62,171 nucleotides of DNA. Source: a virus. Lineage: Duplodnaviria; Caudoviricetes. Positions 12,254-32,512 of the stretch are shown in pieces. Under the pieces are notes generated by a model, which was not told the DNA's origin, did not search any database, and saw nothing but the letters and a program-made list of their open reading frames with translations. The stretch is taken from positions 1 through 62,171 of the IMG/VR virus record IMGVR_UViG_3300044613_000656; one strand, given 5' to 3'. Both the position numbers and the translations under genes were made by a program. Position 1 is the first letter of the stretch. Every line of letters begins with the position of its first letter.

Positions 12254-12880
12254 ATGAAAAAGATGAAAACTAAGCGTTATCAGGAAGGGATGAGTGTAGA
12301 AGGTGATTACGAGTCCTCTGATGATTACAAAAATCTAATAAGTGCCGCAGCCCGTGAAAAGGCCGATGCAGAAAAATCAGCCACCCCTGCCGCTCCTGCA
12401 AAAGCAGCCTCTTTTGGCGAAGCATTTAAATCTGCTCGTGGTCGTGGCGATAAGACGTTTGAGTACATGGGTAAAAAGTACACAACGGAAATGGCTGGTG
12501 GTAAAAAGGCCCCTGCTGCTAAATCTTTTGCCGACACTCAGGACAGAGAAGCAGGCGCTAGAGTTACTAGAACTGAACGGCAGAACGCATTGTTTGCTGA
12601 AAATAAGCCGAAGAAATCATCTTCGTATGGTGAAGCCGCTCGTTCAGCCCGTACCCTCGGGGATGTTATGAAAGAAGATTTAGAGCGGTCAGCAGCAATA
12701 AGATCAGGCAAAGAAAAAACCCTTGGTACTCGGTTCCAAGAAGGCATGCGTAAATTTGGTCGTGCTTTAGCAACTGGACAGCCGCAAGGTGGGATGAAAA
12801 AAGGCGGAATGGTTGGTTCTGCTTCCAAGCGTGCCGATGGTTGTGCCCAGCGTGGTAAGACTAAAGGACGGATGGTCTAA
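12254..12880 (+). CDS. Basic protein with C-terminal KKGG...ADGCAQRGKTKG tag
   Basis: ORF; tag shared with next three genes; SFGEAFKSAR...KTFEYMGKKYTT module. Confidence 0.8.
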   Translation: MKKMKTKRYQEGMSVEGDYESSDDYKNLISAAAREKADAEKSATPAAPAKAASFGEAFKSARGRGDKTFEYMGKKYTTEMAGGKKAPAAKSFADTQDREAGARVTRTERQNALFAENKPKKSSSYGEAARSARTLGDVMKEDLERSAAIRSGKEKTLGTRFQEGMRKFGRALATGQPQGGMKKGGMVGSASKRADGCAQRGKTKGRMV

Positions 12881-12882
12881 TC

Positions 12883-13140
12883 ATGGCTGATAAACCACCA
12901 GTTGAGGGTCGCACCGCTTACATCAAAAAGAATATGCCGGATGGCGTGTTAAAAAGTATTTTGGTTAAGGGAAGTGAACTTGTTGATGACATGGGTTTTA
13001 CCCAACAGAAAGAGTACGAAGGGAAAACCCGAGAAGAGGTAGCCAAGAAACCCACGCCCGAGAAAAAGCGGGCTGGTGGTTACGTAAAGGCCGCTGATGG
13101 CTGTGTTCAACGGGGTAAGACCAAAGGAAGGATTGTGTAA
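12883..13140 (+). CDS. Small basic protein with RAGG...ADGCVQRGKTKG tag
   Basis: ORF, shared C-terminal motif. Confidence 0.8.
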   Translation: MADKPPVEGRTAYIKKNMPDGVLKSILVKGSELVDDMGFTQQKEYEGKTREEVAKKPTPEKKRAGGYVKAADGCVQRGKTKGRIV

Positions 13141-13391
13141 TGGTTCGTGACCACGATGAAATCTATGATGAACTTTTGGAAGAAGAGGAACGTAAAAGCG
13201 TTCGTGGTCAACAGAAAAAGGGCACGACAGCAAAACCTCCTGAAAAAAATCCTTCACCTAGTGAAGATATAGAGTACCCCACGCCAACGCCAAAAAAGGC
13301 TAAACCTGTAGTCAAGATTGCGGCGTTGCGTAAGGGTGGTTCGATAGATGGCTGTGCCATCAGAGGGAAAACCCGTGCCAGCCACAAGTAA
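13140..13391 (+). CDS. Small protein with RKGG.IDGCAIRGKT tag
   Basis: TAATG coupling, shared C-terminal motif. Confidence 0.75.
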   Translation: MVRDHDEIYDELLEEEERKSVRGQQKKGTTAKPPEKNPSPSEDIEYPTPTPKKAKPVVKIAALRKGGSIDGCAIRGKTRASHK

Positions 13392-13797
13392 GAAACAAGA
13401 AAGATTTATGCAAGCGGTGGCTAATAACCCAAAGTTTGCAAAAAAGGTGGGCGTACCAACGTCCGTAGGCAAAGAGTTCACTAAAAAGGAAGGTGGAGTC
13501 ATGAAAGAGTCAAAGGCAATGATGAAGAAAGAAGTTTCCTTCATGAAGAAAAAAGGCGCTCCCAAGTCCATGCTCAAGCATGAGATGAAAGAAGCCGGTA
13601 TGAAGAAGATGCGTGCTGGTGGTATGCCGATGGGGCCAGATGGCAAACCCACTTTTGTTGGTGACGGTAAAGGCAAAATGAGATCTGGTGGTCTGGCTGG
13701 TGGTCACAAGTCCGCTGACGGTGTTGCTTCCAAGGGCAAGACTAAAGGCAAGACGGTCAAAATGGCTGGCGGCGGGATGCGCGGCGGGAAGTGCTAA
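13375..13797 (+). CDS. Lys/Met-rich protein with several MxxGG repeats and ADGVASKGKTKG tag
   Basis: ORF track 13348; GTG at 13375 follows GAGGG SD. Confidence 0.8.
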   Translation: MPATSKKQERFMQAVANNPKFAKKVGVPTSVGKEFTKKEGGVMKESKAMMKKEVSFMKKKGAPKSMLKHEMKEAGMKKMRAGGMPMGPDGKPTFVGDGKGKMRSGGLAGGHKSADGVASKGKTKGKTVKMAGGGMRGGKC

Positions 13798-14076
13798 ATG
13801 AGACCGAGCCGGGGCATGGGGGCCATGAACCCCTCTAAGATGCCGAAAGCCAAGACGATCAAGCGGAAAGACAAACCGCAAGACGTTGAAATGTTTGCCA
13901 AAGGTGGTGAGTCTCGGGTTAACGAGGCTGGCAATTACACCAAACCCGGCATGCGTAAGTCTATATTTGAGCGCATCAAGGCTGGCGGCAAGGGGGGTGC
14001 TCCGGGTCAATGGAGTGCCCGTAAGGCTCAAATGCTGGCTATGCAGTATAAAAAGTCTGGTGGAGGCTATAAGTAA
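13798..14076 (+). CDS. Small basic protein (DUF5872-like first half)
   Basis: NYTKP...KGGAPGQWSARKAQMLAMQYKKSGGGYK. Confidence 0.75.
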   Translation: MRPSRGMGAMNPSKMPKAKTIKRKDKPQDVEMFAKGGESRVNEAGNYTKPGMRKSIFERIKAGGKGGAPGQWSARKAQMLAMQYKKSGGGYK

Positions 14077-14429
14077 TGGCTTGGTCAGAAAAGTACAAAC
14101 GCTCTATTGACTGCGATAGTCCCAAAGGCTTTTCGCAAAAAGCGCATTGTGCTGGTCGAAAGAAAAAAATGGCCGGTGGCGGCCTAGCCAAGCCTCAGCA
14201 AAGTCTCAAAGACTGGACTGCTCAAAAGTGGAGAACTAAGAGTGGCAAACCTTCTACGCAAGGATCGAAGGCGACAGGGGAACGGTATCTTCCCTCTGCT
14301 GCAATCAAAGCGTTATCCCCCCAAGAATATGCCGCAACAACCCGAGCCAAGCGTGCAGGGAAAGCCAAGGGAAAACAATTTGTGGCACAGCCTAAGAACG
14401 TGGCTAAAAAGACTGCTGGGTATAGGTAA
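14076..14429 (+). CDS. Small basic protein (DUF5872-like second half)
   Basis: QQSLKDWTAQKWRTKSGK...GERYLP...KQFVAQP preceded by a WSEKYKRSIDC...HCAGRKKK module. Confidence 0.75.
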   Translation: MAWSEKYKRSIDCDSPKGFSQKAHCAGRKKKMAGGGLAKPQQSLKDWTAQKWRTKSGKPSTQGSKATGERYLPSAAIKALSPQEYAATTRAKRAGKAKGKQFVAQPKNVAKKTAGYR

Positions 14430-14434
14430 AAATA

Positions 14435-15382
14435 ATGAGCACAACAACCGGAACCGAACTGTTTAACCTAAACCTCAATGACCTCATTGAGGAGGCGTTT
14501 GAGCGTGCCGGTTCAGAGGTGCGTTCGGGCTATAACGTCCGCACGGCTAGAAGAAGTTTAAATCTGTTGACTATCGAGTGGTCTAACCGGGGCGTAAATC
14601 TTTGGACGATTGAAGAGGGGCAGATCCCGCTCGTTCAAGGGCAGGTAACTTATCCCCTGCCGGTAGACACAATTGACTTGATAGAGCACGTAGTTCGGAC
14701 TAATAACGGGGTGCAGTCTACGCAGACGGATATTAATATCACCCGGATCTCGGTCTCAACTTATGCAACTATCCCTAACAAAATTACACAAGGCCGACCC
14801 ATTCAGGTATGGGTGGATCGTCAGTCTGGAAGTGTTGGAAAGACAGGGTTAACCCTAGCATCAAATATTGTCGCTGCCGACACAACCATTACTCTGTCTT
14901 CGACGCTTGGCTTACCAGCCACGGGTTATGTGACGATTGGTGCTGAAACAATCAACTACACGAATACGACCTCGACTCAACTGCTAAATTGTCTGCGTGG
15001 TCAAAATGGAACCACCGCAGCCTCCCATACGGCTGGGGCTACAGTTACTGCACCTGAACTGCCAAATATCAATGTGTGGCCTGCCCCAGATCAAGGTACG
15101 GCGGCTAGTCCTGTCTATACCTTTGTTTACTGGCGTTTACGCCGGATTCAGGATGCGGGTAATGGCATCAATACCCAAGATATTCCGTTCCGTCTACTGC
15201 CCTGTATGGTGGCTGGGCTGGCCTATTACATAGCCATGAAGATCCCTGAAGGGGCGGCACGGTTAGATATGCTGAAAATGGCATATGAGGAACAATGGAT
15301 GTTGGCCTCTGGTGAAGATCGTGAAAAGGCGTCTGTTAGATTTGTGCCGCGCAATATGTTTGTGACAGGTGGCGGCTATTAA
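14435..15382 (+). CDS. Probable head-tail adaptor protein with inserted beta domain
   Basis: LIEEAFER, ARRSLNLL..EWSNRG.NLW, GLAYYIA; Thr-rich insert with LRGQNGTTAASH. Confidence 0.7.
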   Translation: MSTTTGTELFNLNLNDLIEEAFERAGSEVRSGYNVRTARRSLNLLTIEWSNRGVNLWTIEEGQIPLVQGQVTYPLPVDTIDLIEHVVRTNNGVQSTQTDINITRISVSTYATIPNKITQGRPIQVWVDRQSGSVGKTGLTLASNIVAADTTITLSSTLGLPATGYVTIGAETINYTNTTSTQLLNCLRGQNGTTAASHTAGATVTAPELPNINVWPAPDQGTAASPVYTFVYWRLRRIQDAGNGINTQDIPFRLLPCMVAGLAYYIAMKIPEGAARLDMLKMAYEEQWMLASGEDREKASVRFVPRNMFVTGGGY

Positions 15383-15810
15383 TGGGCAACAAGTTTTCCT
15401 CTGGCAAGTTTTCGATCTCCCAGTGTGATCGGTGTGGGTTTCGGTTCAAACTAAAAGATCTTAGACGGCTAGTTATAAAGACCAAAAACGTAGATATTAA
15501 GGTTTGTCATGAATGTTGGGAGCCAGATCAGCCGCAGTTACAACTTGGAATGTATCCGGTTTATGACCCACAAGCCGTTCGTGAGCCTCGTCCTGATACT
15601 ACGTACTTTCAAGCGGGTCTTAATGGTTTGGAAACAAACCCCGATGGTGGCCCAACTGAAGCGGGTTATGGCGTGCCGACACAGGGCAGTAGGATTGTCG
15701 CGTGGGGGTGGAACCCGGTAGGATTCTATAACCCTCTACTTCTCCCATTCCAACAGAATTTTCTGGTGGCAGACGGGGAGGTAGGGACTGTAACTGTAAC
15801 AACTACATAG
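15382..15810 (+). CDS. Zn-finger virion-region protein
   Basis: CDRC...CHEC, DPQAVREPRPD, C-terminal GEVGTVTVTTT. Confidence 0.75.
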   Translation: MGNKFSSGKFSISQCDRCGFRFKLKDLRRLVIKTKNVDIKVCHECWEPDQPQLQLGMYPVYDPQAVREPRPDTTYFQAGLNGLETNPDGGPTEAGYGVPTQGSRIVAWGWNPVGFYNPLLLPFQQNFLVADGEVGTVTVTTT

Positions 15811-15819
15811 GAGTTGAAG

Positions 15820-16011
15820 ATGGAAAAGACAGCAATGAAAAGGGTGGCTAGGGCCGAAGTTAAGTCACACGAGAAAAAAATGCACGGGGTAAAGAAGATG
15901 CGGGCTGGTGGTAAAACCAACGCCGACATGATGAAATATGGTCGGAACATGGCTAAAGTTATGAACCAGCGCAGCCCGATGCGTGCGCCGTCTAAAAAGA
16001 CAGGGATCTAA
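15820..16011 (+). CDS. Small basic protein with KKMRAGG motif
   Basis: AGGAG SD; HEKKMH and MRAGG motifs. Confidence 0.7.
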   Translation: MEKTAMKRVARAEVKSHEKKMHGVKKMRAGGKTNADMMKYGRNMAKVMNQRSPMRAPSKKTGI

Positions 16012-16013
16012 TC

Positions 16014-16223
16014 ATGGCAAAAGATGACAACAAGTACGTTAAGCCCCAAAAAGACAAGCCGGGGTCAAGCGCAGTAGCCAAGGGCAGTATTGCCGTAAAA
16101 GGTAATGAGGCGTCTTTTGGTTTTAACGGCTACCCCAATGCCATCCCAAGCACTCAGACTGTAAAGACTCGGGGTACGGGCGCGGCTACTAAAGGCACTA
16201 ACTCCAGCACAAAGTTGGGATAA
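16014..16223 (+). CDS. Small basic protein
   Basis: C-terminal KTRGTGAATKG, resembles the RxxGxAxRG tag. Confidence 0.7.
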   Translation: MAKDDNKYVKPQKDKPGSSAVAKGSIAVKGNEASFGFNGYPNAIPSTQTVKTRGTGAATKGTNSSTKLG

Positions 16224-16901
16224 ATGAACTACTCGACGCTATTTCAGACTATTCAGGCGTATTGTGAAAACGACTTTCCAGATACGGTAGTCGCAACCAC
16301 AACGGCTTCGACGACATCTTTTCTCACTAAAGATCAGATTGACACGTTTATCCGGCAGGCTGAACAAAGGATCTTTAATAGCGTTCAACTTCCAGTTGCC
16401 CGGGAAAACGTGACAGGAAACTGTACGGCTAATAACAGATTCTTAACTACTCCCACAGACTGGCTTGCTACGTTCTCGTTGGCTCGGATTGATCCAAGTG
16501 GCTCACAGGAATACCTGCTAAACAAGGATGTTGAGTTTATTCGAGAGTCTTTTCCAAGTCCTACCGATACAGGTGCTCCCACTCACTACGCTATTTTTGA
16601 CGAGAACACATTTATCTTAGGGCCGACCCCCGATGCGGATTACAACATGGAGTTGCATTACTACGCATATCCACCGTCTATTGTCACATCTGGCACGACT
16701 TGGCTTGGCACCAACTTTGACTCTGCCCTACTGTACGGTTCCCTGCTTGAAGCGTATACCTTTATGAAGGGTGAGAAGGATGTTAACGATACTTACATAT
16801 CCCGTTACAATGAAGCACTTGCCATGTTGAAACAACTTGGTGAAGGCAAAGACCGTCAAGATATGTATAGAACTGAACAAGCGAGGTATCCAGTTAGATG
16901 A
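16224..16901 (+). CDS. Probable adaptor/tail tubular protein
   Basis: FIRQAEQRI, GAPTHYA, LGPTPD..Y.MELHYY, ALLYGSLLEA. Confidence 0.7.
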   Translation: MNYSTLFQTIQAYCENDFPDTVVATTTASTTSFLTKDQIDTFIRQAEQRIFNSVQLPVARENVTGNCTANNRFLTTPTDWLATFSLARIDPSGSQEYLLNKDVEFIRESFPSPTDTGAPTHYAIFDENTFILGPTPDADYNMELHYYAYPPSIVTSGTTWLGTNFDSALLYGSLLEAYTFMKGEKDVNDTYISRYNEALAMLKQLGEGKDRQDMYRTEQARYPVR

Positions 16902-17194
16902 GCACAATGAGCGAAGTAGCCTTCCTTTTAGGAGGCTCAAATGTCAAAGTTCTTACAACGCAAGGTCGAGGGTTTACCCCCGAGGAAGTTGCAGAACGAG
17001 CGCTAGACAAAATTATTTCTGTAGGTTCTCAGACGCATCCTGCCATTCGGGATCAGGCAGAGGCGTTTAGAAATCAAATCCGTCAGGTTTTGGTGTTTTA
17101 TATGAAGGAAGCCATTAAGTCGCACCATACGACGTTGGCTATCAAGTTCAGGAAAGCAGGACATCCTGAGTTTATTAAACTTTTAGATGAGTAA
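16898..17194 (+). CDS. Hypothetical tail-region protein
   Basis: ATGA coupling; GFTPEEVAERALDKII, HPAIRDQAEAF. Confidence 0.75.
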   Translation: MSTMSEVAFLLGGSNVKVLTTQGRGFTPEEVAERALDKIISVGSQTHPAIRDQAEAFRNQIRQVLVFYMKEAIKSHHTTLAIKFRKAGHPEFIKLLDE

Positions 17195-17205
17195 AGGAGC
17201 CACAA

Positions 17206-17694
17206 ATGGCGATTACCCAAGCGATGACCACCTCTTTCAAAGCAGAACTTCTGCTTGGTGTTCATGATTTCCGTCCGTCTGCTGATGCTGGTGCAGACAC
17301 GTTTAAACTCGCTCTGTATACATCCTCAGCAACTCTGGATGCAAATACAACTGCTTACACCGCTTCTAACGAAGTTGGTACTTCCGGTACTAACTATTCG
17401 GCTGGCGGTCAGGCTTTGACCAACACGGGTGTAGGCACAACCAACATTAACGCCAACACTGGTACAGGCTTTACTGACTTTTCTGATGAGACATTCACGA
17501 ACGCCAACTTCACGGCTCGTGGTGCGCTGATTTATAACAGCACTCCTTCGGCAAACAGCAACGCTAATACCACGCTGACCAATGCATCGGTCTGTGTGTT
17601 GGACTTTGGTGCAGACAAAACGGCTTCGGACGGTGACTTCACCATCATCTTCCCAACCAATGATGCATCAAATGCGATTATCCGCATCGCCTAA
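17206..17694 (+). CDS. Small structural protein (fibre/tail subunit)
   Basis: AAGGAG SD, biased codons; FKLALYT, YSAGG, ARGALIYN, VLDFG.DK. Confidence 0.8.
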   Translation: MAITQAMTTSFKAELLLGVHDFRPSADAGADTFKLALYTSSATLDANTTAYTASNEVGTSGTNYSAGGQALTNTGVGTTNINANTGTGFTDFSDETFTNANFTARGALIYNSTPSANSNANTTLTNASVCVLDFGADKTASDGDFTIIFPTNDASNAIIRIA

Positions 17695-17703
17695 GAGTCT
17701 TAG

Positions 17704-19077: not shown

Positions 19078-19086
19078 GAGTAACAA

Positions 19087-19848: not shown

Positions 19849-19858
19849 GGAGCAGAAC

Positions 19859-20389
19859 ATGGCAATAGATATTAATGGTGATGGCCTAATTGCGGTTGGG
19901 GGCACATCTACTACGCAGGGTCGTGTACGGCTTGCAGAAGACACGGATAACGGCACTAACTATGTTGAGTTAACCGCCCCAGCCGCAGTTACGTCCAATA
20001 GAACGGTTACATTTCCTGATGAAACAGGAACAGTTTTAACTGGCGCAAGTGCAATTACAGCCTTTCCATCTACTGTTGGGTACAGAAATATACCCCCCGT
20101 CGGGACTAAAACCGGTTCATATACTTTAACTACAGCAGATGTTGGTGAGTACGTACAAGTTGGCTCTGGTGGTTCGATCACAATCCCAGACGCTACTTTT
20201 GCCGAGGGCGATGCAATATCAATTTTCAATAATACTTCTGGTGGCATTACTATTACCTGCACAATTACAACCGCTTACATTGCTGGTACAGATTCGGATA
20301 AGGCTTCTGTAACTCTAGCCACTAGGGGTGTTTGTACTATCTTGTTTATTTCTGGCACTGTTTGCGTTATTACAGGAAACGTGACATGA
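19859..20389 (+). CDS. Tail fibre subunit
   Basis: NRTVTFPDETGTV; C-terminal LATRGVCTILF...ITGNVT. Confidence 0.7.
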   Translation: MAIDINGDGLIAVGGTSTTQGRVRLAEDTDNGTNYVELTAPAAVTSNRTVTFPDETGTVLTGASAITAFPSTVGYRNIPPVGTKTGSYTLTTADVGEYVQVGSGGSITIPDATFAEGDAISIFNNTSGGITITCTITTAYIAGTDSDKASVTLATRGVCTILFISGTVCVITGNVT

Positions 20390-21126
20390 GTGGTATTCAG
20401 TTAATGTTTGTTGGCGGCGGTGCTGGGAAGACAGTTATTAATCTTTCCATCACATCCAATACAGCAAACTATGACGTTTACGCAAACCGTGGCCCAACCT
20501 ATGTTGCAGGAAACTCTGAAATCACGGTAACAATTGGCCCCGCAGCAATTGTTTATAGTTCGTCTACTGGAACAGCCGCATTTACAGTACCGTCCGCATT
20601 TAACCCCGCAGATACTATTACTGTAGTTAATAACGGTGTAATTCTTGGACGTGGTGGCGGTGGTGGTAACGGTGGGCCTGCTGGAACTGGATTTGCAAAC
20701 CCCGGCGGAGCAGGCACCGCTGCTGGTGGAGCATTTTTAACTCAGCGTGCTGTCACCGTAAATAATTTAAACAGAATCGCTGGTGGCGGTGGCGGCGGTG
20801 GCGGTGGTGGGGGCGCTGTAGGATTTGATCCAGATTCCGGTAATTGGTATCCCGCTCCGGGTGGTTCTGGTGGCCCCGGTATTGGCGCTACTTCATTAAC
20901 TGCACCCACTCCCGGTAGTCCGGGGTCTACAAGTGCTGTGGGAAATCTTGGTGGCCCGGGCGGTGCTGGTGGAACCTACGGGAGTAGTGGAAGTTCTGGA
21001 AGTCCGGGTTCCAACGCCCCAATGTTTGGTAGTGGTGGCGGCGGCGGTGCAGGCGGATATGCAATAAGCGGCAATCCATTTATTACCTACATAAATACTG
21101 GCACCAGAAACGGTGGAATTTCATAA
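20386..21126 (+). CDS. Gly-rich adhesin (T-even gp38-like receptor recognition)
   Basis: ATGA coupling at 20386; NNGVILGRGGGGG, IAGGGGGGGGGG, GGAGGYAISG. Confidence 0.7.
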   Translation: MSGIQLMFVGGGAGKTVINLSITSNTANYDVYANRGPTYVAGNSEITVTIGPAAIVYSSSTGTAAFTVPSAFNPADTITVVNNGVILGRGGGGGNGGPAGTGFANPGGAGTAAGGAFLTQRAVTVNNLNRIAGGGGGGGGGGGAVGFDPDSGNWYPAPGGSGGPGIGATSLTAPTPGSPGSTSAVGNLGGPGGAGGTYGSSGSSGSPGSNAPMFGSGGGGGAGGYAISGNPFITYINTGTRNGGIS

Positions 21127-21136
21127 GGAATTTAAA

Positions 21137-21427
21137 ATGTCTCTACAGTACAAGATTAGAAGTTTTAACGCAGCCTTTGGTCAGATCTCTATAGAGTATT
21201 ACTCTGCAAATGGTCAATATTCACAAGAGTTTGCATTAGACCTGCCTATTAAAGATGACAACACATACCCGGTTGGCGATGAGTTATCCGCTCTTATTAT
21301 GAGCACGGCCCCAACTTGGCACTATGAGAGAACACAAAAAGTTTTGGCTGGGGTGAGCAACTCTGCTGCTATCCAAAGTTTAGTCGAGCCTTACCCACAA
21401 CCAGAGCCAGTAGTTTCTGGGTCGTAA
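21137..21427 (+). CDS. Hypothetical fibre-associated protein
   Basis: ATG 21137 after AAGGA SD. Confidence 0.7.
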   Translation: MSLQYKIRSFNAAFGQISIEYYSANGQYSQEFALDLPIKDDNTYPVGDELSALIMSTAPTWHYERTQKVLAGVSNSAAIQSLVEPYPQPEPVVSGS

Positions 21428-21447
21428 AATTTAGATAGGAGTAAGAA

Positions 21448-22455
21448 ATGCCCACTTCAACAATAATCTCAGATAACGGCGTAACTTCGGGTACGACTGG
21501 CCTAAAGACGGCTGGCGGCGACGACGGCACGTTAGTTCTGCAAACCACGACTGCTGGTGGCACGGCTACCACGGCAGTAACAATCAACACTACGCAAGTA
21601 GTAACTCTGGCAAACGCCCTGCCTGCTGGATCAGGTGGAACAGGCGCAGCAACGCTAACCGCTGAAAACGTGGTGATTGGTAACGGCACAAGCGCAGTGA
21701 AGTTTGTAGCCCCCGGCACCACAGGTAATGTCCTCACTTCCAATGGTTCAGCGTGGTTATCCCAAGCCGCAGCGGCTGGAGGCGGCGATTATGTAATGCA
21801 AGTTTATGGCTCTCCTGCCACATGGACTAAACCCGCATCTGTTAAAGCGGTAAAAGTTACAGTAGTTGGTGGCGGTGGAGGAGGAGGTGGGGGCGGAGGT
21901 ACTTACCGTGGTGGCGGCGGTGGTGGTGGTGGAGTTTCAGTTGAATATCTCGATGCTCCAGCCCTTCCCGGCCCTGTTGCCGTAACTGTTGGCAGTGGTG
22001 GGGGTTCGGCTCAGGCTGGAGGGACTACATCTTTCGGGCCATTTTTATCAGCAACCGGAGGTGCGGCAGGGACAATCACCCCGACAGTCGGCACAGGTGG
22101 TGCAGGTGGTTCTGGTTCTGGTGGACAAATTAACCTAAGTGGTGGTTCGGGAGCAAGGGGAGGTGCCTCTTATGGCAGTGGTGGAGGTGGCGCTGCTGGC
22201 GGTGGAGATGGAGTTAGGGCGGCGGTTTCAGTTGTATGTCCCGTTGATAGCAACCTTAGCGTTGGTGGTGGCGGCGCTTTTGGAAGAGGTGCAAATGGTG
22301 TTCCTCCGGATCCCGGCCCGGGATTTGCCGGAATTCCCGCAGGTGGATATGGAAACGGTGGTGGTGGTGCGTTTGGAAACACTGGCAGTCCTGCGCAGGT
22401 AACTTCCGCTGGTTCAGGATCGGCAGGTTTAGTCATAGTCGAAGAATTTTATTAA
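21448..22455 (+). CDS. Gly-rich tail fibre/adhesin A
   Basis: GNVLTSNGSAW, TWTKPA.VKAVKVTVVGGGG, ends IVEEFY. Confidence 0.8.
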   Translation: MPTSTIISDNGVTSGTTGLKTAGGDDGTLVLQTTTAGGTATTAVTINTTQVVTLANALPAGSGGTGAATLTAENVVIGNGTSAVKFVAPGTTGNVLTSNGSAWLSQAAAAGGGDYVMQVYGSPATWTKPASVKAVKVTVVGGGGGGGGGGGTYRGGGGGGGGVSVEYLDAPALPGPVAVTVGSGGGSAQAGGTTSFGPFLSATGGAAGTITPTVGTGGAGGSGSGGQINLSGGSGARGGASYGSGGGGAAGGGDGVRAAVSVVCPVDSNLSVGGGGAFGRGANGVPPDPGPGFAGIPAGGYGNGGGGAFGNTGSPAQVTSAGSGSAGLVIVEEFY

Positions 22456-22483
22456 TTTGCTATTAAAGCAACAGGAGTAACAG

Positions 22484-23320
22484 ATGAGCAAAATAGCACT
22501 AGAAGGTAACGCAAGCGGTACAGGTACATTTACCATTGCGGGGCCGAATACCAACACTAACTACACCATCACGCTGCCACAAGAAACGGGCACGTTAGTC
22601 ACAACGGGTGTAACTACCGGTTTAAACGGATCGGCTATATCTACCGGTGTTGTTGCGGCAAGTGTGGGTGGTACTGGACTTACATCTGCTGGTACAAACG
22701 GTAACGTACTGACATCGAATGGTTCTGCTTGGGTCTCTCAAGCCGCAGCGGCTGGAGGCGGTGACTATATTATGGTTGCTTATACAAGCCCTGCAACTTG
22801 GACAAAACCCGCAGGATTAAAAGCAGTTAAGGTTACGGTGATTGGCGCTGGTGGTAATGGTGGGACAAATAATTCTGGTACTAACTTCGCTGGTAGTGGT
22901 GGCGGCGGTGGGGGTGCTATTTTATATTTAGATGCTCCCGCAGTGCCCGGGCCTGTAAGTGTAACAGTTGGAAGCGCACCATCTAAAACATCTTCTTTTG
23001 GCCCTCTTGTTTCCGCTACTGGAGGAACTAATGGCACCAATGCTCCTCCCTCTGGTAATGCCCCACAAGGCCCTTATGCTGGTGGTACAGGAAGCGGCGG
23101 AACAATTAATGTCACGGGTGGTCATGGGTATGGAATAGCCTATGAGGCTGGTGCTAGGGGTGGAGAAGCAGCACTTGGATTTGGTACCCCCGGCTCTTTT
23201 GGCGGAGCGCCTGTAATTGGAGGAAATGCTTACGGCGGTGGCGGGATGGCATCAAACAATGGTGCCGCAGTAGGTGGCAATGGTGGCGCAGGAATTGTCA
23301 TAGTCGAAGAATTTTATTAA
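22484..23320 (+). CDS. Gly-rich tail fibre/adhesin B (paralog of A)
   Basis: Same GNVLTSNGSAW, TWTKPA, IVEEFY framework. Confidence 0.8.
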   Translation: MSKIALEGNASGTGTFTIAGPNTNTNYTITLPQETGTLVTTGVTTGLNGSAISTGVVAASVGGTGLTSAGTNGNVLTSNGSAWVSQAAAAGGGDYIMVAYTSPATWTKPAGLKAVKVTVIGAGGNGGTNNSGTNFAGSGGGGGGAILYLDAPAVPGPVSVTVGSAPSKTSSFGPLVSATGGTNGTNAPPSGNAPQGPYAGGTGSGGTINVTGGHGYGIAYEAGARGGEAALGFGTPGSFGGAPVIGGNAYGGGGMASNNGAAVGGNGGAGIVIVEEFY

Positions 23321-23918: not shown

Positions 23919-25043
23919 ATGTGTGAATCCATGACCCAACTTCATATACAAGGGTATTCGCATCTTTCTGGTTTTCTTAGCAAAGACAGTTGTGCGGAGT
24001 TAACAACAGAACTTAAGCGAATTGTTGCTGAAGGAAAAACTACGAAAGATAATCAATGCCCTTTATCAGAAGCCGTTCATGGAGCAGTCATTTTTGATTC
24101 CTTATTAGAGCAACTTCTCCCTAACTTTGAACTTGCATCAGGCAAGAAACTCTACCCAACCTACGCTTATGCCCGTCTGTATGCCCCCGGTGAAGAGTTA
24201 AAGATCCACACAGATCGTCCATCTTGTGAGATTAGCGCCACCCTAACCCTTGGGTTTGAGGGTGATCCTTGGCCTATCTATATGGGTGATGAGGGCGGTG
24301 CCAATGCTTCCAAGATAATGATGGATGTTGGCGATGCCATCTTATACCGTGGGTGCGACAAGCACCATTGGCGTGAGCCGTATAAAGAGGGTCAATGGCA
24401 GGCTCAGGTATTTCTGCACTATGTAGATGCTAATGGCCCTCATGCTGAGTGGAAGTACGATAAACGACCCAAACTTAGCCATCATGAACAAAGTAAAATA
24501 GATTACACATATTGGTTCTTTGATGATGGGTTAACCCCTGAGTCTTGCAGAAAGATAATTGAGAGTTGTGAGTCTCAATCACAGGGTGAAGATGCTTTAG
24601 TAGGGCAAAGCCTTGGGGGTATCCTTAACAAAAACATTCGGGATGTTAAAAAAATACCTCTTCCAATTTACAGGGGTATCGGTGCAACAATGTCTGGTGC
24701 GGCACTTTCTGCCAACCAGCAGGCTTGGAAGTTTGATGTGACCCGCGCCAACCAGTGCGACTACCTTAAGTACGATGTAGACGGTCACTATCACGCCCAT
24801 GTGGATACCTTCATAAACCCAGAAGAAAAAGAGTGCAGGAAGTTAACGGTTCTTGCTTTCTTAAATGACGACTTTGAGGGAGGTCGTCTGTTCCTACAAA
24901 ACGGGCATGAAAAGATTTACCCACCACAAAAACCCGGAACAATTTTAGTTTTTCCTTCTTTTATGCTTCATGGAGTTGAACCCGTTACAAAGGGTATTAG
25001 AAGATCAATAGTGACTTGGATGGTTGGCCCTTGGTTTAAATAG
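23919..25043 (+). CDS. Tandem 2OG-Fe(II) oxygenase (prolyl-hydroxylase-like)
   Basis: Domain 1 HTDR...HWRE; domain 2 HVD...RKLT...DFEGG...HGVEPVTKGIRRS. Confidence 0.9.
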   Translation: MCESMTQLHIQGYSHLSGFLSKDSCAELTTELKRIVAEGKTTKDNQCPLSEAVHGAVIFDSLLEQLLPNFELASGKKLYPTYAYARLYAPGEELKIHTDRPSCEISATLTLGFEGDPWPIYMGDEGGANASKIMMDVGDAILYRGCDKHHWREPYKEGQWQAQVFLHYVDANGPHAEWKYDKRPKLSHHEQSKIDYTYWFFDDGLTPESCRKIIESCESQSQGEDALVGQSLGGILNKNIRDVKKIPLPIYRGIGATMSGAALSANQQAWKFDVTRANQCDYLKYDVDGHYHAHVDTFINPEEKECRKLTVLAFLNDDFEGGRLFLQNGHEKIYPPQKPGTILVFPSFMLHGVEPVTKGIRRSIVTWMVGPWFK

Positions 25044-25051
25044 GAGAAAAA

Positions 25052-25460: not shown

Positions 25461-26054
25461 ATGGATGTATCTTTTATTGACATAACAAATAATTTTTCAA
25501 TACCAATCATAGACAACTTTTATTCTGAAACAGAACTTGAAAAAATAAAAGGTGAACTAAAGTTATTAAGTGCTGTAGCAGAACTAAAAATTTTTGTTAA
25601 TAAACCAGCCAAAGATGAAGAAGATAGTCCAAAACAAAAAAGTAATTCTTTCTTTTTAGATAATTTGTATGAAGGTAAAAGAAGTTTATCTAAAATTTTA
25701 AATATAAACAGAAAGTTATTTTCGTCAGAATTAAAAACAAAGTTAGTAGAAAAAAATTTATTTTACGATCATATTTTTCATTCAGATTTTGATACGACAC
25801 TATTAAATTTTTATGGGCCAACTGATTATTACAAACCGCATAGAGATACTTCTTGTTTTACAGCATTGACTTTTTTTAAGTTAGAAGAGTTTAGTGGTGG
25901 TAATTTAGTTTTTCCAGAATACGAAATAGAGATTGAACCAGTAGAGAACAGATTGGTTATTTTCCCGGGGTTTATTTTGCATGGCTCAGAAGAAGTTACA
26001 AAAGGAATACGTGTAAGCATGGCTCAGTTTATAAACTATCGTGCAGGGGATTAG
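25461..26054 (+). CDS. 2OG-Fe(II) oxygenase (AT-rich gene)
   Basis: YKPHRD, FSGGNL, NRLVIFPG..LHG..V...R.S. Confidence 0.85.
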   Translation: MDVSFIDITNNFSIPIIDNFYSETELEKIKGELKLLSAVAELKIFVNKPAKDEEDSPKQKSNSFFLDNLYEGKRSLSKILNINRKLFSSELKTKLVEKNLFYDHIFHSDFDTTLLNFYGPTDYYKPHRDTSCFTALTFFKLEEFSGGNLVFPEYEIEIEPVENRLVIFPGFILHGSEEVTKGIRVSMAQFINYRAGD

Positions 26055-26063
26055 GAGATAAAT

Positions 26064-26474: not shown

Positions 26475-26476
26475 TT

Positions 26477-27339: not shown

Positions 27340-27346
27340 GGAAAAT

Positions 27347-29230
27347 ATGCCGTTCATACCTTTAAAATTTAGACCCGGAGTCAATCGAGACACCACCAAC
27401 TATGCCGGTGAGGGCAATTGGTGGCAGATGGACAAGATCCGTTTCCTGTCGGGTTTCCCTCAAAAGATTGGTGGTTGGGTTAAATCTACGCCAAATACAT
27501 TCCTTGGCACCTGCCGGGGGTTGTGGAATTGGGTTACGACTTTCTCTGATAACTTCTTAGCAGTTGGTTCTAATCTCAAACTTTATATTGAGGCTGGTGA
27601 TTATTTTTATGACATCACGCCTCTACAGGCAACTACTGCCGCCGGAGATGTGACGTTTATTGCCGCCAACGGATCTTCTTCGGTCACGGTGGTAGATGCA
27701 AGTAACCCAGCCAAGGTCGGAAACTATGTGACTTTTAGTGGTGCAACTTCTCTTGGTGGGAACATAACGGATACTATTCTTAATACTAATCACGAGATTG
27801 CCACGCTGGTTAACTCCAATGCATACACAATCGTCGTTCCGGCTACAGCCAATGCATCTGATTCTGGTAATGGTGGCGCAGCCACTATTGGATATTACGA
27901 CATTGACATAGGTGAGGTTTTAACCATTTACGGATACGGCTGGGGTGCTGGCACTTGGGGCCGACTTGGATGGGGCCTTGGGTCAATTGTTCCGGTAATT
28001 ACTCCGGCTAGGGTGTGGTGGTATGACAACTTTGACAATGATTTAGTTGCCAATATTCAGGACGGCCCAATCTACTATTGGGAGCGGGGAGCAACAGTTA
28101 ATCCAACTACAGCGTTAGGAACTCGGGCGGCGCTAATGTCTTCTTTTGGAGGTGCTAGTAATGTACCAGTCAGGGCAGGTCAGGTTCTTGTCTCGCAGCA
28201 GGATAAACATTTGCTCGCTTTTGGGAGTGTGCCTTATGGTAGTTCTAATGTGGATGATTTTGACCCCCTTCTTATTAGGTGGACTAATCAAGACGATCCT
28301 TTCAACTGGACTCCAACCGCGACGAATACGGCAGGCTTTATCCGAGTATCTCGTGGATCAAGGATTGTCAGGGCGATCCCGACACGTCAGGAGATTTTGA
28401 CGTTTACAGATTCACATCTTTACACGCTTCAGTTTACGGGTACAACAGATGTGTTTGCGTTACAAGAGTACGCCGACAATATTTCGATTGCAGGCTCCCG
28501 TGCAGTGGCAACGGCTAATAACATTACATTCTGGATGGGGCAAGATAAGTTCTATGCCTATACTGGTCGAGTAGAAACCTTACCTACAACGCTACGTAAT
28601 CAAGTATTCGGAGATATTAACCTTGATGCTGGGTATGCAATTATTGCCGGTACAAACGAGGGCTGGCAGGAAGTCTGGTGGATGTATCCCAGTGCTTCTT
28701 CTAACTATCCTAACCGGTATGTAATTTTTAACTACAACGAGAAGATTTGGTACTACGGCACGATTGACCGGACAGGCTGGCTGGATTCGCCACTACGTAA
28801 CTTCCCAATGGCTGTTAACACACCGCTTGGTTCAAAGACCGGCACACTCTATTTCCACGAAGATGGGGTTAACGATGATACCCTCCCAATGGAGTCATAC
28901 ATTATTTCAAATGACTTTGACCTCGCTGATGGTGAGCAATTTATGCTTACTCGCCGCATACTGCCCGATATTAACTTTGATGGGTCTACAGCAGCGCAGC
29001 CAGAAGTCAAGATCCAACTCCGCCCACGTCGATTCCCCGGAACCTCGGCTACGGCTAGTCCCACGGATGAAAAACGGGTAGTAGAAGTATCTGCTAATAC
29101 CTACACTGATGAGATCTTTATCCGTGCCCGTGGTCGCCAGATGGGATTTAAAGTTAGTTCCACAGACCTTGGTGTGCAGTGGCAGTTGGGAGTACCGCGC
29201 CTTGATGCAAGACCAGACGGTAAGAGATAA
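27347..29230 (+). CDS. Probable tail nozzle/hub (beta-propeller) protein
   Basis: 627 aa; PQKIGGW, LLIRW, FWMG, EVWWMYPS, IRARGRQ, ends PDGKR. Confidence 0.75.
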   Translation: MPFIPLKFRPGVNRDTTNYAGEGNWWQMDKIRFLSGFPQKIGGWVKSTPNTFLGTCRGLWNWVTTFSDNFLAVGSNLKLYIEAGDYFYDITPLQATTAAGDVTFIAANGSSSVTVVDASNPAKVGNYVTFSGATSLGGNITDTILNTNHEIATLVNSNAYTIVVPATANASDSGNGGAATIGYYDIDIGEVLTIYGYGWGAGTWGRLGWGLGSIVPVITPARVWWYDNFDNDLVANIQDGPIYYWERGATVNPTTALGTRAALMSSFGGASNVPVRAGQVLVSQQDKHLLAFGSVPYGSSNVDDFDPLLIRWTNQDDPFNWTPTATNTAGFIRVSRGSRIVRAIPTRQEILTFTDSHLYTLQFTGTTDVFALQEYADNISIAGSRAVATANNITFWMGQDKFYAYTGRVETLPTTLRNQVFGDINLDAGYAIIAGTNEGWQEVWWMYPSASSNYPNRYVIFNYNEKIWYYGTIDRTGWLDSPLRNFPMAVNTPLGSKTGTLYFHEDGVNDDTLPMESYIISNDFDLADGEQFMLTRRILPDINFDGSTAAQPEVKIQLRPRRFPGTSATASPTDEKRVVEVSANTYTDEIFIRARGRQMGFKVSSTDLGVQWQLGVPRLDARPDGKR

Positions 29231-29232
29231 GC

Positions 29233-30210
29233 ATGGCGTTAGAAAAATTCCGCGCCTCTCCGTTACCTATACCCCCTTCGGAGTACAGCCCAGAGCACTT
29301 TAGGCAACTTATACGGGTGCTGGAATTATATTTTTCACAACTAGACTCGCTTACTCCTAATCAAGCAGAGTCGTACCGTGCAGATAACTTTTATGGTGGC
29401 AACTTTATCGGAGACTTAACTGGAGATGTGGTGGCAGATGTTGCCACAATAAAACTTCTTAACACGATACAAGCCTACATACAGGCCGCAACGATTAGCA
29501 CCCTATCAACTAACTATGCCCGGATCCAATCTCTACTAAATAACCGCATAGTCACCAAAGATATTATGGCTGACCATATGTACGCCGGAGATTTTGAAGG
29601 GTTTGGTGACGGAGTTATATTTCCTCACATAGCCGCATCGGACTCAACAGATCAAGTGGCTGGTGGAGACGATACACCTACAGCAGTAGAATTTAATACT
29701 CTTGATTCTGGATTTGGCTGGACGCTAAACGCACCGGGATCTGCTACGTCTACTTACGCCGGTGTGTATAAAATTACTTATAGTATTCAGTTTATAAATA
29801 CAGCAAACGCTATTCACTACGCTACCGTCTGGCTTAAAGTTAATAATAGCGACATACCTAATTCGTCCACAATTTTTACCGTGCCCGCTCGTAAAAGTGC
29901 TAGTCCGGGTGAAGAAGGTTATGTCTGTGGGTACTCTGAAATTACATTTGAAATAGATGCTGGGGATGAAATTGAGTTGTATTGGGCAACGGATTTGGCT
30001 GGCAACCCTACAACCCCAACAGACGGTGTTTATCTGTATCACGACACTGCTTGGACTACCCCAACCAATCCCTATGCCCGCCCAGCCGTTCCGTCGGTTA
30101 TAGGTTCAATCACGTTTGTTTCGGCTCTAAACAAGGTCAAAGTAGCCCCCCTCCCGGTCTATGGATACGGTCAGGTGGGGGCTGTTACAGTTACCACAAA
30201 TCTAGGATAA
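29233..30210 (+). CDS. Tail-associated protein
   Basis: LPIPP..Y....F.QL...LELYFSQL start, coiled segment, C1q/BclA-like beta C-terminus (GVYKITYSIQF). Confidence 0.65.
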   Translation: MALEKFRASPLPIPPSEYSPEHFRQLIRVLELYFSQLDSLTPNQAESYRADNFYGGNFIGDLTGDVVADVATIKLLNTIQAYIQAATISTLSTNYARIQSLLNNRIVTKDIMADHMYAGDFEGFGDGVIFPHIAASDSTDQVAGGDDTPTAVEFNTLDSGFGWTLNAPGSATSTYAGVYKITYSIQFINTANAIHYATVWLKVNNSDIPNSSTIFTVPARKSASPGEEGYVCGYSEITFEIDAGDEIELYWATDLAGNPTTPTDGVYLYHDTAWTTPTNPYARPAVPSVIGSITFVSALNKVKVAPLPVYGYGQVGAVTVTTNLG

Positions 30211-30217
30211 TCCTAAT

Positions 30218-32512
30218 ATGAACGGTATTTCTTCTCTCTACCAAATGACCCCTACAGGTGTCCCCTTTAGAACCGGGATGCGGGGGGAATCTACTACCGA
30301 GCAAAGATACTTTGTCCCCGGTTTTTCTACTGCCCCCGTTATACCCCTAACCCCCGAGCAACAAGCCAACCAAATGATGGCGGCTCAGAGAAGTAATTAC
30401 GACGGTGGTGGGGGGGATAGCACCGGCGCTCCTTCGGGGCCTACTTCTTCACCTACTATGGGTTCTAGTGGTGGTCTAGGGGGAATAGCCCAAACTCTTG
30501 GGGGTATAACTGCAAGTTTGCAAAATACTTTTGGCCCTTTTGCTCATGCTATCCCCGGTTATGGCCTAATGAACGCTGCGTCAAATATAGGTCAAGATTT
30601 AGCGATAGACGCAAACGCAAGGGCTGACGCCGCTTTAGCCAGAGCCAATGAGCAGGCTAATCAAGCCAGAGTTACATCGCCATTTTTTAGTTTTGGGCCA
30701 CAAGTTACTACTGCTGTTGATATAGCCCCTGTAGCCGGTTCAATCCCCGGAACACAGCAAGTTAGTCCTATAGCCCCTGATGTAGTCGCACCGGGGATTC
30801 CTGTAACAGATTTAGACGTAAATGTTGACCCTACAGCCGCTTTGACGGCTATGAATCAAGCGCAGAAAGCGGAAGAACAAGAGCAATCTAGTGTGCCCGC
30901 CGTAGCCGCTACTGTTGCTGAAGCCCTATCTTTTGCTGACACCCAAGATCAAGAGGCTGGTCAAAACGTAGGCACCCCCGCTGGTACTACCACAACTACC
31001 TCAGATCAAGGCGGAGGGGGTGGAAGTGAGGGTGCTCCCGGTGGCTACAGCACTGAGGCTACCATAGGTGTTGATGCAAATGATACTCCCGGTGATAGCA
31101 CACCTAGCGATGGAGCAGAAAATAGCGGGGTTTATTTTAAGGGTGGTCGGGTTATGAATTACGCACAAGGTGGTGTCGCCTCCCTAGCCAATCAGGTTCA
31201 GTCTCAAGGCCGTGGTCAAGACAAGATGCTTGTCCACATGACCCCTCGGGAAGTCCAAGGATTGCAGTACCTAGCCATGCGGCATGGTGGCTCTCTTAGT
31301 ATTAACCCTAGAACTGGTCTCGTTGAGGCAGGGTTCTTAAGTTCAATCCTCCCAATGGTCGCTGGTGCGGCCTTGGCTGCTACAGGGGTTGGTGCTCCTA
31401 TGGCGGCATTGATGGTAGGTGGTGGCTACGGTCTGGCTACAGGGAGCCTTACAAAAGGTCTTATGGCTGGTCTAGGGGCGTTTGGTGGGGCTGGTCTAGG
31501 GGCTGGGCTTTCTGCGGCTGGAGCCACGGCTTCCCCGGCTTTAACAGGAACTACAACGGGTCTAGCCGGAGCGCCTGAACTTGCGTCTCAAACACTTTCA
31601 CAGGCGGCTCCACAGGCTATTGAACTATCGGGGACTGCGGCTGATGCGTTTGGTATGTACCCAACAACACCTCTTACCTCGTCAGCGGCCTACACGCCTC
31701 AAGGATTACAAACTCTAGCGGCTCAACAACAAGCAGATGCCGCTATGAATGTTATTGCTACCCCATCAAGTACGGTTGTTTCTCCGGGTGGCTTTGGTTC
31801 AACAGTTAAACAAATGGGGACAGGTCTTTCCAACGTAGTCCAAGGCACCGAAGGCGCTCGCGGCGCATTTATGAGTTCCGTTGGTGGCCCGATGGGGTTA
31901 GCCAAATACGGCGGTGCAGCCGCCGCTCCGATACTGGCTGGTGGGTTTGGGGATCAGTCTTCTGGTCTGCCTATCCAAGAGCAGTTTATTCGCCCCTTTA
32001 GATATGGAACAGGTCGGCAAAATGTGCCGTATCGCACGGGTGAGCGTGGGGAATCTACTGCCGAACAAACATATTTTGATTCTCGTTTTACTCCTGTTGG
32101 CGTTTACAAGGCGGGTACTGAACCCGCTTATGGGACATACGCTCAAGGTGGCACAATAGATCCAGACTACAACATGGAAGTTGACCGCAATTCTGGGTTC
32201 TCTGATGACTTTTACGGTGGTGGATTAACGGCCTTGGCTGCTGGCGGTAGTCCCAATAAACCTCGGTTTTTGATGGGCAAGGGTGACGGTATGAGCGACT
32301 CCATCCCTGCCACTATTAACGATACACAACCCGCACGGCTGGCTGATGGTGAGTTTGTCATTCCGGCTGATGTGGTCTCACATCTTGGTAATGGGTCTAG
32401 TAAGGCAGGGGCTGCTAAATTACATTCCATGATGAACCGCATCCGTAAAGCACGGACAGGTAAAAACCGTCAAGCCCCTGAAGTAAGGGCGGAAAGATAT
32501 ATGCCCGCATGA
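30218..32512 (+). CDS. Internal virion/ejection protein
   Basis: GRGQDKMLVHMTPREV, INPRTGLVEA, hydrophobic Gly/Ala segments, C-terminal GDGMSDSIPA...LADGEFV. Confidence 0.75.
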   Translation: MNGISSLYQMTPTGVPFRTGMRGESTTEQRYFVPGFSTAPVIPLTPEQQANQMMAAQRSNYDGGGGDSTGAPSGPTSSPTMGSSGGLGGIAQTLGGITASLQNTFGPFAHAIPGYGLMNAASNIGQDLAIDANARADAALARANEQANQARVTSPFFSFGPQVTTAVDIAPVAGSIPGTQQVSPIAPDVVAPGIPVTDLDVNVDPTAALTAMNQAQKAEEQEQSSVPAVAATVAEALSFADTQDQEAGQNVGTPAGTTTTTSDQGGGGGSEGAPGGYSTEATIGVDANDTPGDSTPSDGAENSGVYFKGGRVMNYAQGGVASLANQVQSQGRGQDKMLVHMTPREVQGLQYLAMRHGGSLSINPRTGLVEAGFLSSILPMVAGAALAATGVGAPMAALMVGGGYGLATGSLTKGLMAGLGAFGGAGLGAGLSAAGATASPALTGTTTGLAGAPELASQTLSQAAPQAIELSGTAADAFGMYPTTPLTSSAAYTPQGLQTLAAQQQADAAMNVIATPSSTVVSPGGFGSTVKQMGTGLSNVVQGTEGARGAFMSSVGGPMGLAKYGGAAAAPILAGGFGDQSSGLPIQEQFIRPFRYGTGRQNVPYRTGERGESTAEQTYFDSRFTPVGVYKAGTEPAYGTYAQGGTIDPDYNMEVDRNSGFSDDFYGGGLTALAAGGSPNKPRFLMGKGDGMSDSIPATINDTQPARLADGEFVIPADVVSHLGNGSSKAGAAKLHSMMNRIRKARTGKNRQAPEVRAERYMPA

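Follow-up and report, generated by a model that had tools for sequence, protein, structure and literature searches.

The peptide FADTQDxEAG, which occurs in two unrelated proteins encoded by the virus record IMGVR_UViG_3300044613_000656 (62,171 bases, the whole record, estimated to be 99% complete, and called the window below), appears from its sequence to be a portable, selected linear motif that lies in disordered linkers and belongs to one clade of uncultured HTVC023P-type podoviruses. The best explanation that we can offer, at a probability of roughly 45%, is that this portable motif docks packaged proteins to a common partner. One of the two carriers is P0001, a basic protein from an array of small proteins that spans about 11270-14429, and the other is P0002, a putative internal-virion or ejection protein.

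Two copies in the window and their recurrence in related phages

Translation of both genes reproduced the pair of copies, together with the positions and codons that a first-pass annotation of the window had given for it. The copies are identical at 10 of 11 residues, and 8 of the 11 codons differ, seven of them synonymously and the eighth being the variable codon. The same annotation had described the two genes as otherwise unrelated, and BLASTP of P0001 against P0002 indeed aligned only the surroundings of the motif, in a single 16-residue match (12/16, E 4e-4), while all remaining matches had E >= 2. It had further placed both copies in low-complexity linkers. Taking a low predicted local distance difference test (pLDDT) score as a proxy for disorder, we found agreement with this, because residues 214-253 of P0002 and residues 89-120 of P0001 are modeled by AlphaFold2 (AF2) as coil with pLDDT below 50.

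Both sites lie in compositionally biased regions, which would favor a chance coincidence within low-complexity sequence, and when residues were shuffled 200 times the best cross-protein 11-mer did reach 10/11 once (9/11 in 31 cases, 8/11 in 161 and less than 8/11 in 7). However, the fully degenerate DNA pattern for FADTQDxEAG matched the window twice and matched none of 100 dinucleotide-preserving shuffles. Among the 80 window proteins, other cross-protein 11-mers with at least 10/11 identity came from paralogous tail-fibre-like genes, poly-glycine runs and a shared C-terminal tag, and only the two carriers have the motif even by a loose pattern, with the major capsid protein (MCP), the portal and the scaffold all lacking it. 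The shuffles, the census that follows, the invariant residue D244 of the ejection family and the codon test refute a chance origin of the pair, for which we see practically no room.

Beyond the window, the pattern search that the first-pass annotation had proposed found the exact motif in further unrelated proteins of related phages. The fully degenerate pattern matched 10 IMG/VR loci and 9 JGI metagenome-contig loci, and all 19 matches are in frame inside open reading frames (ORFs) and come only from related phage contigs. By contrast, 596 Gb of GTDB bacterial and archaeal genomes gave 0 matches, where about 0.5 would be expected by chance as calculated from the information content of the pattern, and the suggestion that the phage might mimic a host sequence is not supported. 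In the 50,697 GenBank phage records, tblastn with two 35-residue motif segments found none at E <= 10 with the low-complexity filter on, and blastn with the array region found no match. The motif strings and the tag strings were not found in the literature searched.

The 19 occurrences fall into four protein contexts. Three of them are in P0001-type tagged proteins (L001, L006 and L032), and thirteen are in tagged proteins of about 175-185 aa, in which FADTQDAEAG comes after a hydrophobic N-terminus (MARKGLRNAALLGGAALLAAKM...) and a Lys-rich stretch, and which share the C-terminal tag with P0001. Two more are in P0002-type ejection proteins (L031 and L004; L004 and L013 are one contig). The last is in a 760-aa protein at L029, which reads AFADTQDKEAG at residues 545-555 and is the counterpart of the two window proteins P0179 and P0178 in one chain: its N-terminus belongs to phrog_4287 (E 3.6e-19) and is 66% identical to P0179, and a P0178-like part follows. 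The motif is the sole similarity of this protein to P0002 (11/15), and its contig is syntenic with the window at about 32-46 kb.

Ten 35-residue segments representing all contexts could be aligned without gaps (alignment A4), with D, D, E and G invariant and A at 90%; conservation also covers the non-acidic F/I, A, A and G. The free position is R, Q, A or K, and the wider consensus reads [F/I]-A-D-x-x-D-x-E-A-G; three positions past the G there is usually a hydrophobic residue. Within its carriers the motif sits at residues 91-101, 238-248, 545-555 or, in the family with the hydrophobic N-terminus, about 32-41. In three of the four contexts it adjoins hydrophobic, glycine-zipper-like segments (residues 367-402 of P0002, the N-terminus of the tagged family and the L029 protein), and every carrier gene belongs to the virion module, two of the carriers being of ejection type. 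The peptide is short with few fixed positions, lies in AF2-predicted disorder, is conserved relative to its flanks and recurs in unrelated proteins, as a short linear motif (SLiM) does in the ELM sense. Selection on the peptide and its rapid gain and loss are SLiM features too.

Conservation, selection and exchange of the motif

P0002 has no PHROG match at E <= 0.1, and we regard it as a putative ejection protein on the basis of its composition and its position two genes upstream of the phrog_4287 'DNA ejection protein', without a family match. Behind the N-terminal extension, a conserved core starts near residue 315, a hydrophobic stretch spans residues 367-402 and the C-terminal domain is again conserved; the AF2 model, built on a 52-sequence alignment, has a mean pLDDT of 42.5 and shows a helix at residues 206-221. 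A Pfam match of residues 220-252 to PF16857 RNA_pol_inhib (T7 Gp2) scored 13.3 bits against a cut-off of 27 (E 0.08) and was taken as chance.

A region search with residues 150-330 of P0002 returned 52 proteins. P0126, the window protein itself translated from an internal Met, was set aside, and the other 51 were aligned with P0002 (alignment A3, n = 52). Over residues 150-314, D244 is the sole invariant column, and the other motif columns are conserved at 96% (D241), 87% (G248), 77% (E246), 75% (A247) and 71% (A240). Exact FADTQD.EAG is present in 21 of the 52 sequences (20 of the 51 homologs), another form of AD..D.E[AG]G, mostly ATADAVDAE[AG]G, in 11, and TQDAVDAE[AG]G at the place of the motif in 7. 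Within the extension, which is predicted to be disordered, no island is better conserved than the skeleton AD..D.E[AG]G. The Ala/Val-rich block before it (AVAA.VA) is also fairly conserved, so that the P0002 motif ends a conserved block and is not an isolated island. These counts imply that the acidic skeleton is old at this position and that FADTQDxEAG is a form derived in one subclade.

The first-pass annotation had proposed that the motif is selected, and the codons support purifying selection on the peptide. In their nine shared codons (27 bases), the two window copies show seven differences, each a synonymous third-position change, and when 7 substitutions were placed at random the peptide was kept in 1 of 2,000,000 trials. 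When eight instances were compared in all pairs, no non-synonymous difference was found except at the free codon and at the residue before F. The P0001-type copies are shallow, with at most one synonymous change among four, so the P0001 copy could be recent; constraint in the tagged proteins is read from the other tagged family, because its members are only 41-49% identical overall, with diverged N-termini and flanks, and still read FAD[TI]QDAEAG.

The motif has also moved as DNA. The L031 ejection gene (108-143) and the L005 tagged gene (2215-2243, minus strand) differ at 0 of 30 bases, with unrelated flanks; including the next Ala codon the identity is 32/33, and between L031 and L009 one of 30 bases differs. 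Because third positions are free to vary, as the window pair demonstrates, the 30/30 identity points to a recent transfer of a patch of about 30 bases in that lineage. By these comparisons, the motif travels between genes as DNA and is at the same time conserved as a peptide. A functional connection between the small-protein array and the ejection proteins had been read from the window pair by the first-pass annotation; the connection stands as shared sequence, including the 30/30-base patch in one lineage, but not as shared function.

On the side of the array, P0001 belongs to no Pfam family and has no PHROG match at E <= 0.1. It lacks a hydrophobic segment, and AF2 (18 sequences) predicts a small helix-hairpin domain at residues 50-80 (pLDDT 76-83). 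The database holds 627 homologs at E <= 0.001. The next-closest orthologs, P0004 and P0005 (74% and 81% identical by BLASTP, 86% and 85% in alignment A2), match P0001 on both flanks, with STPAPARSRMTGGKSGDADRDIGS replacing the motif cassette in that alignment. In P0008 and P0009 the P0001 N-terminus is joined to the C-terminal half of the other tagged family, and the homolog P0108 reads ...EDREAG.... For the tagged family with the hydrophobic N-terminus we scored 113 newly returned homologs: 11 have the exact motif, 4 have FADIQDAEAG and 1 has only a second variant, IAD[MIT]ED[RQ]EAGER[FVL], which is also present in 8 proteins that carry FADTQDAEAG or FADIQDAEAG. Extra forms are a further copy, FADTQDADAG, in P0189 and FADRQEEAG in P0191. 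Other members have cassettes such as DTTGDASAGMA, GKSGDADKDIGP, EGRTASGLPREARG, GKSGDADxDIGP and RDTGDETxRLAxRYP, the last four times in P0242. Judging from the cassette mosaics read in P0182, P0189, P0191, P0210, P0242, P0247, P0255 and window positions 12518-12616, a tagged protein is a disordered chain of short, reshuffled cassettes with a variable N-terminus at one end and the fixed tag at the other, and FADTQDxEAG is one among several such cassettes.

The place of the motif-bearing gene in the array is constant. At the tagged loci (n = 16) the order is the 84-aa DUF6321 protein, the 77-aa protein with the hydrophobic N-terminus and then the motif-bearing tagged gene. The 77-aa gene is upstream of the latter in 16 of 16 loci, directly adjacent in 14 and with one gene between in 2, L028 and L034, where the intervening gene is P0001-like and has no motif. 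Motif carriers occupy the first or second slot of the tagged-protein array, and the slot is the same for the P0001 type and the other tagged type.

Proposed docking to a common partner and other explanations

The history of the motif reads as follows. The skeleton AD..D.E[AG]G is old in the N-terminal extension of P0002-type proteins, and the derived FADTQDxEAG has been copied as a short DNA patch into a second ejection protein and into genes of the tagged array, purifying selection keeping it in each new setting. If the motif is a docking epitope, unrelated cargo proteins would all attach through it to one site of a common partner. This partner would most probably belong to the virion interior or the ejection apparatus (portal, adaptor or core), and docked cargo would be packaged or released together. 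In this scheme we infer the packaging of the tagged proteins, the binding by the motif and the identity of the partner; we favor docking because of the SLiM features, the virion-module carriers and the hydrophobic neighbors. A bolder form, in which the motif is a portable address tag, that is, an epitope of about 10 residues moved by short-patch recombination that enrolls new cargo at one portal, adaptor or ejection site, seems to us possible but doubtful. If true, it would represent a modular loading code for proteins delivered to the host with the DNA.

Several observations weigh against docking. The motif is absent from all four complete relatives and from 10 partial ones, which makes it dispensable for the phage type as a whole. 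The DNA pattern for AD..D.E[AG]G had no match in 14 long contigs of capsid relatives, including the four complete genomes (MCP 86-88% identical), and because the TQDAVDAE form would escape this pattern, the four complete genomes were also scanned in six frames with a looser protein pattern, again without a match. The P0002 homologs of these four start only at residue 321 or 648, and thus they have no N-terminal extension; tagged proteins are present in three of them. Only two records cover both loci, the window and G006 (19.5 kb), and both have motif-type sequence in both proteins, which in G006 is FADTQDAEAG in the tagged protein and ATQDAVDAEAG in the ejection protein. This two-versus-four co-occurrence is compatible with a link, although the counts lack phylogenetic independence. 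A stricter pattern, allowed up to one mismatch, matched none of five other relatives, which are partial or distant and mostly do not extend over the array.

The families themselves add to these points. Conservation in the orthologs of both genes, to which the first-pass annotation had looked, holds on the ejection side (20 of 51 exact, and 18 more with the skeleton or TQDAVDAE[AG]G) and fails on the side of P0001, where the exact motif is in 1 of the 120 homologs listed of the 627, namely P0003, which is 99% identical. Even in the ejection family, 13 of the 52 sequences have no form of the skeleton, and several read DAVDADAG, DAVDAATS or DAVDTATS. The motif or a variant is in only 16 of the 113 tagged proteins with the hydrophobic N-terminus. 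The 35-column profile of alignment A4, which is too short to reach far, found only 2 of 1.84 billion protein representatives at E <= 0.001, both from the ejection family, and thus gave no sign of a wider distribution. Finally, we infer the virion location of the tagged proteins only from gene position and from one weak PHROG match, that of a neighboring array protein (phrog_22033, E 1.8e-6).

The main variant of the docking idea places the partner in the host, the disordered Gly/Ser/Thr-rich extension presenting the motif to an envelope or cytoplasmic factor after ejection, much as colicin translocation domains offer short binding boxes. The long disordered G/A/T/S/P-rich regions around the motif would suit this, as would the hydrophobic, glycine-zipper-like segments that adjoin it in three of four contexts and the restriction to one clade, which a host-specific adaptation might show. 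Nevertheless, P0001 has no such hydrophobic segment, and the GTDB contigs with P0002 relatives are mis-binned, spread over many phyla and offer no host clue. That nothing similar exists in 596 Gb of bacterial genomes speaks against mimicry, although a docking epitope need not mimic anything. We consider a host partner unlikely. The mosaicism of the tagged proteins raises a different explanation, namely that the motif is constrained only in the ejection protein and was pasted into tagged genes too recently to decay. Cassette mosaicism is rampant there, an ejection gene and a tagged gene share 30/30 bases, the P0001-type copies are shallow and most tagged proteins lack the motif, all of which would favor such a passive patch. 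It would not account for the diverged tagged proteins, 41-49% identical, that keep FAD[TI]QDAEAG, for the second diverged variant kept in the same proteins, for the same array slot whichever protein type carries the motif, or for the acquisition of the motif by a second ejection protein. As a general account a passive patch is improbable, but the P0001 copy itself may be such a scar.

On geometry it is attractive to suppose that a maturation protease cuts after the Glu (D-x-E|A-G) and frees an N-terminal propeptide or membrane anchor. In having A/G right after the E, the motif is like the E|A junctions of T4-type sites, the position just before the E is variable (R, Q, A or K), and the motif directly follows the hydrophobic N-terminus and Lys-rich stretch in the tagged family and ends the conserved block of the P0002 extension. 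But all 52 sequences have Asp, and not A/S/G/L/I, three residues before the cut, the Glu is conserved to only 77% and is Asp in several members (e.g., DAVDADAG and FADTQDADAG), and MCP, portal and scaffold are not among the two of 80 window proteins with the motif. No protease was recognized in the head module by Pfam or PHROGs, where a 353-aa protein looks like a coiled-coil scaffold, and no prohead protease family was found by either in the 46 + 27 + 9 proteins scanned; PDB sequence and Atlas searches with P0124 and P0125 were empty, although an unrecognized protease may be encoded. A processing site is thus, in our view, distinctly unlikely. Less credible still is an acidic cluster that acts by charge or by binding metal, either through divalent cations or by pairing with the basic C-terminal tags. 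The conserved residues are indeed acidic (D241, D244 and E or D at 246) with small residues next to them, and the carriers include very basic proteins such as P0001 (pI 10.0), yet by inspection the D-x-x-D-x-E spacing matches neither DxDxDG nor EF-hand loop patterns, conservation extends to the non-acidic F/I, A, A and G, and the basic tag is widespread in relatives without the motif.

Known systems offer partial parallels. In phage T4, the capsid targeting sequence (CTS) of the internal proteins IPI-III and Alt is a short N-terminal peptide that the gp21 prohead protease removes. Like the peptide described here, it is common to unrelated proteins, and its cargo is packaged in the head and injected, the CTS being transferable. 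Unlike the CTS, the window motif is internal (residues 91, 238, 545 or about 32), its carriers are candidate packaged proteins, and no protease gene is recognizable. The T4 prohead protease itself cuts at L/I-x-E. According to one report, ejection proteins of giant phages contain prohead-protease cleavage motifs of the type A-x-E (SPN3US gp245) or S/A/G-x-E (phiKZ) (PMC10052503). These sites share with our motif the shortness, the terminal Glu, the free position before it and the occurrence in several ejection proteins, and differ in that the motif has Asp three before the cut, sometimes Asp for Glu, only two carriers in the window and no protease found.

The closest mechanical parallel may be N4, for which the structural report describes twelve fragments of about 16 residues (residues 1-16) of gp52 that are ordered in the adaptor lumen and a gp51 hairpin by the portal (PMC13434306). 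Both the gp52 fragments and the gp51 hairpin leave on ejection, according to that report (PMC13434306). There, as may be the case here, short pieces of flexible ejection proteins are held at a defined site in the portal-tail channel inside the virion, and by this analogy we think such holding the most likely mechanism for the motif. Each N4 fragment, however, belongs to one protein and is not shared by unrelated ones; the likeness carries no claim of sequence similarity, and the window phage is known from sequence alone. For the T7 gp14, gp15 and gp16 homologs, one study describes functional pieces that move between different ejection proteins of related podoviruses (PMC8954989). What is swapped in those T7-like phages is a folded enzymatic domain, whereas here it would be a disordered patch of 10-13 residues that also enters small proteins not of ejection type. 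Colicins cross the Gram-negative envelope with the help of short conserved epitopes, the TolB box and the TonB box, in Gly/Ser-rich disordered translocation domains. The disordered setting is similar, and by inspection the motif does not resemble the consensuses of these boxes. From each of these systems the motif differs in being internal, apparently uncleaved, shared by unrelated proteins and moved as a 30-base patch.

To our knowledge, little is understood, outside T4, P22, T7 and N4, of how podoviruses select and position the proteins that travel in the virion and are injected. A selected, mobile internal peptide would be a simple, testable handle on how podoviruses load internal proteins, and a true docking tag might also serve to bring foreign proteins into capsids. 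Should the motif be a passive recombination scar, it still documents that disordered virion proteins are mosaic on an unusually fine scale, with cassettes of 10-30 residues. Phages of the HTVC023P-like type are described as very abundant in nature.

Genome setting and neighboring genes

The window MCP is 73% identical to that of MinM2/Pag-Yong1 and 65% to that of Pelagibacter phage HTVC023P, and the latter has the same gene order in its head module. The description of the HTVC023P type assigns it to the Podoviridae and counts GroES among its 13 core genes (PMC9599517). With its terminase, portal, GroES-like gene and capsid protein (Table 1), the window has the head module of a podovirus of this type. 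Close relatives of the capsid protein are encoded on at least 599 IMG/VR contigs. Downstream of the array are tail and fibre genes, two 2-oxoglutarate (2OG)-Fe(II) oxygenases, a holin and an endolysin, and the replication genes are on the opposite strand.

Table 1. Positions of the motif copies, their carrier genes and other features of the window (pI, isoelectric point)
Feature	Position	Strand	Remarks
Motif copy 1, SFADTQDREAG	12524-12556	+	P0001 residues 91-101
Motif copy 2, SFADTQDQEAG	30929-30961	+	P0002 residues 238-248
P0001	12254-12880	+	208 aa, basic, pI 10.0; N-terminal mini-domain, variable linker, C-terminal tag
Variable linker cassette of P0001, motif-bearing	12518-12616	+	Residues about 89-121; alignment A2; AF2 coil
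C-terminal tag of P0001, KRADGCAQRGKTKGRMV	12827-12877	+	Common to next three array proteins
Tag positions in the window	12827-12877, 13093-13137, 13344-13388, about 13720-13770		
Three more tagged small proteins	12883-13140, 13140-13391, 13348-13797	+	All without motif
77-aa protein	12017-12250	+	Hydrophobic N-terminus, helical remainder; phrog_7885, E 9e-5
DUF6321 protein	11761-12015		84 aa; Pfam E 8e-20
P0002, putative internal-virion or ejection protein	30218-32512	+	764 aa, acidic, pI 4.8
N-terminal extension of P0002	30218-31159	+	Residues 1-314; G/A/T/S/P-rich, pI 4.05
Conserved block of P0002	30833-30961	+	Residues 206-248; predicted helix 206-221, Ala/Val-rich stretch, ending in motif
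P0295, between ejection genes	32509-32934		141 aa; no Pfam match
P0179, phrog_4287 'DNA ejection protein'	32931-33947	+	Without motif
P0178	33958-35367	+	Without motif
Terminase	2773-4287		PHROG/Pfam scans
Portal	4298-6748		PHROG/Pfam scans
GroES-like co-chaperonin	6979-7368		Pfam Cpn10 E 7e-8; phrog_3188
Coiled-coil scaffold-like protein	7379-8440		353 aa; by inspection
Capsid protein	9524-10441		PHROG/Pfam scans
Run of large virion proteins	27347-41046		Includes the phrog_4287 protein and a DarB-like protein

The very conserved basic tag (...S[KSR]RADG[CI]A.[RK]GKT[KR]G[KR]...) closes at least four adjacent small proteins of the window and also hundreds of database proteins whose N-termini are otherwise unrelated (P0003-P0292; 627 and 277 matches at E <= 0.001), and it is covered by no Pfam or PHROG family. 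The DUF6321 protein at the head of the array order is 99-100% identical in 13 related loci and 86-92% identical in four complete relatives, which makes it as conserved as the capsid protein, with its neighbors at 30-60%. According to PHROGs, the DUF6321 domain is also the C-terminal end of very large proteins.

In P0002, an internal repeat VP[FY]RTG.RGEST.EQ.YF is present near both ends (30242-30337 and 32006-32107, residues 9-40 and 597-630), and its N-terminal copy was seen only in the window, L013 and G006 forms. P0295 may resemble a small acetyltransferase fold, as judged by eye. It is 100% identical in L011 (5013-5435), where the adjoining P0002 gene has its N-terminal half replaced, and this combination places a recombination breakpoint inside P0002. 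As a partner of the motif P0295 was rejected, because its homologs adjoin ejection genes both with and without the motif.

P0002-type C-terminal domains were also found at 12 GTDB loci (L143-L154), in metagenome-assembled genomes (MAGs) of unrelated phyla (Microbacteriaceae, Phycisphaerales, Burkholderiaceae, Chlamydiia and others). These matches all start at residue 312 of P0002 or later, so none of them covers the extension; the contigs are most simply explained as phage contigs mis-binned into MAGs and give no host clue.

The two oxygenases are of the PF13640 type (23919-25043 and 25461-26054), and the N-terminal part of the first matches 'ferrochelatase' PHROGs. Homologs were detected in G006, but none in the four complete, motif-less genomes (G010-G013). 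That these enzymes might modify the motif is only a loose idea, as the motif has no Pro or Lys. Poly-glycine runs occur in three tail-fibre-like genes (20332-23320), two of which, at 21448-22455 and 22484-23320, are paralogs with long identical stretches.

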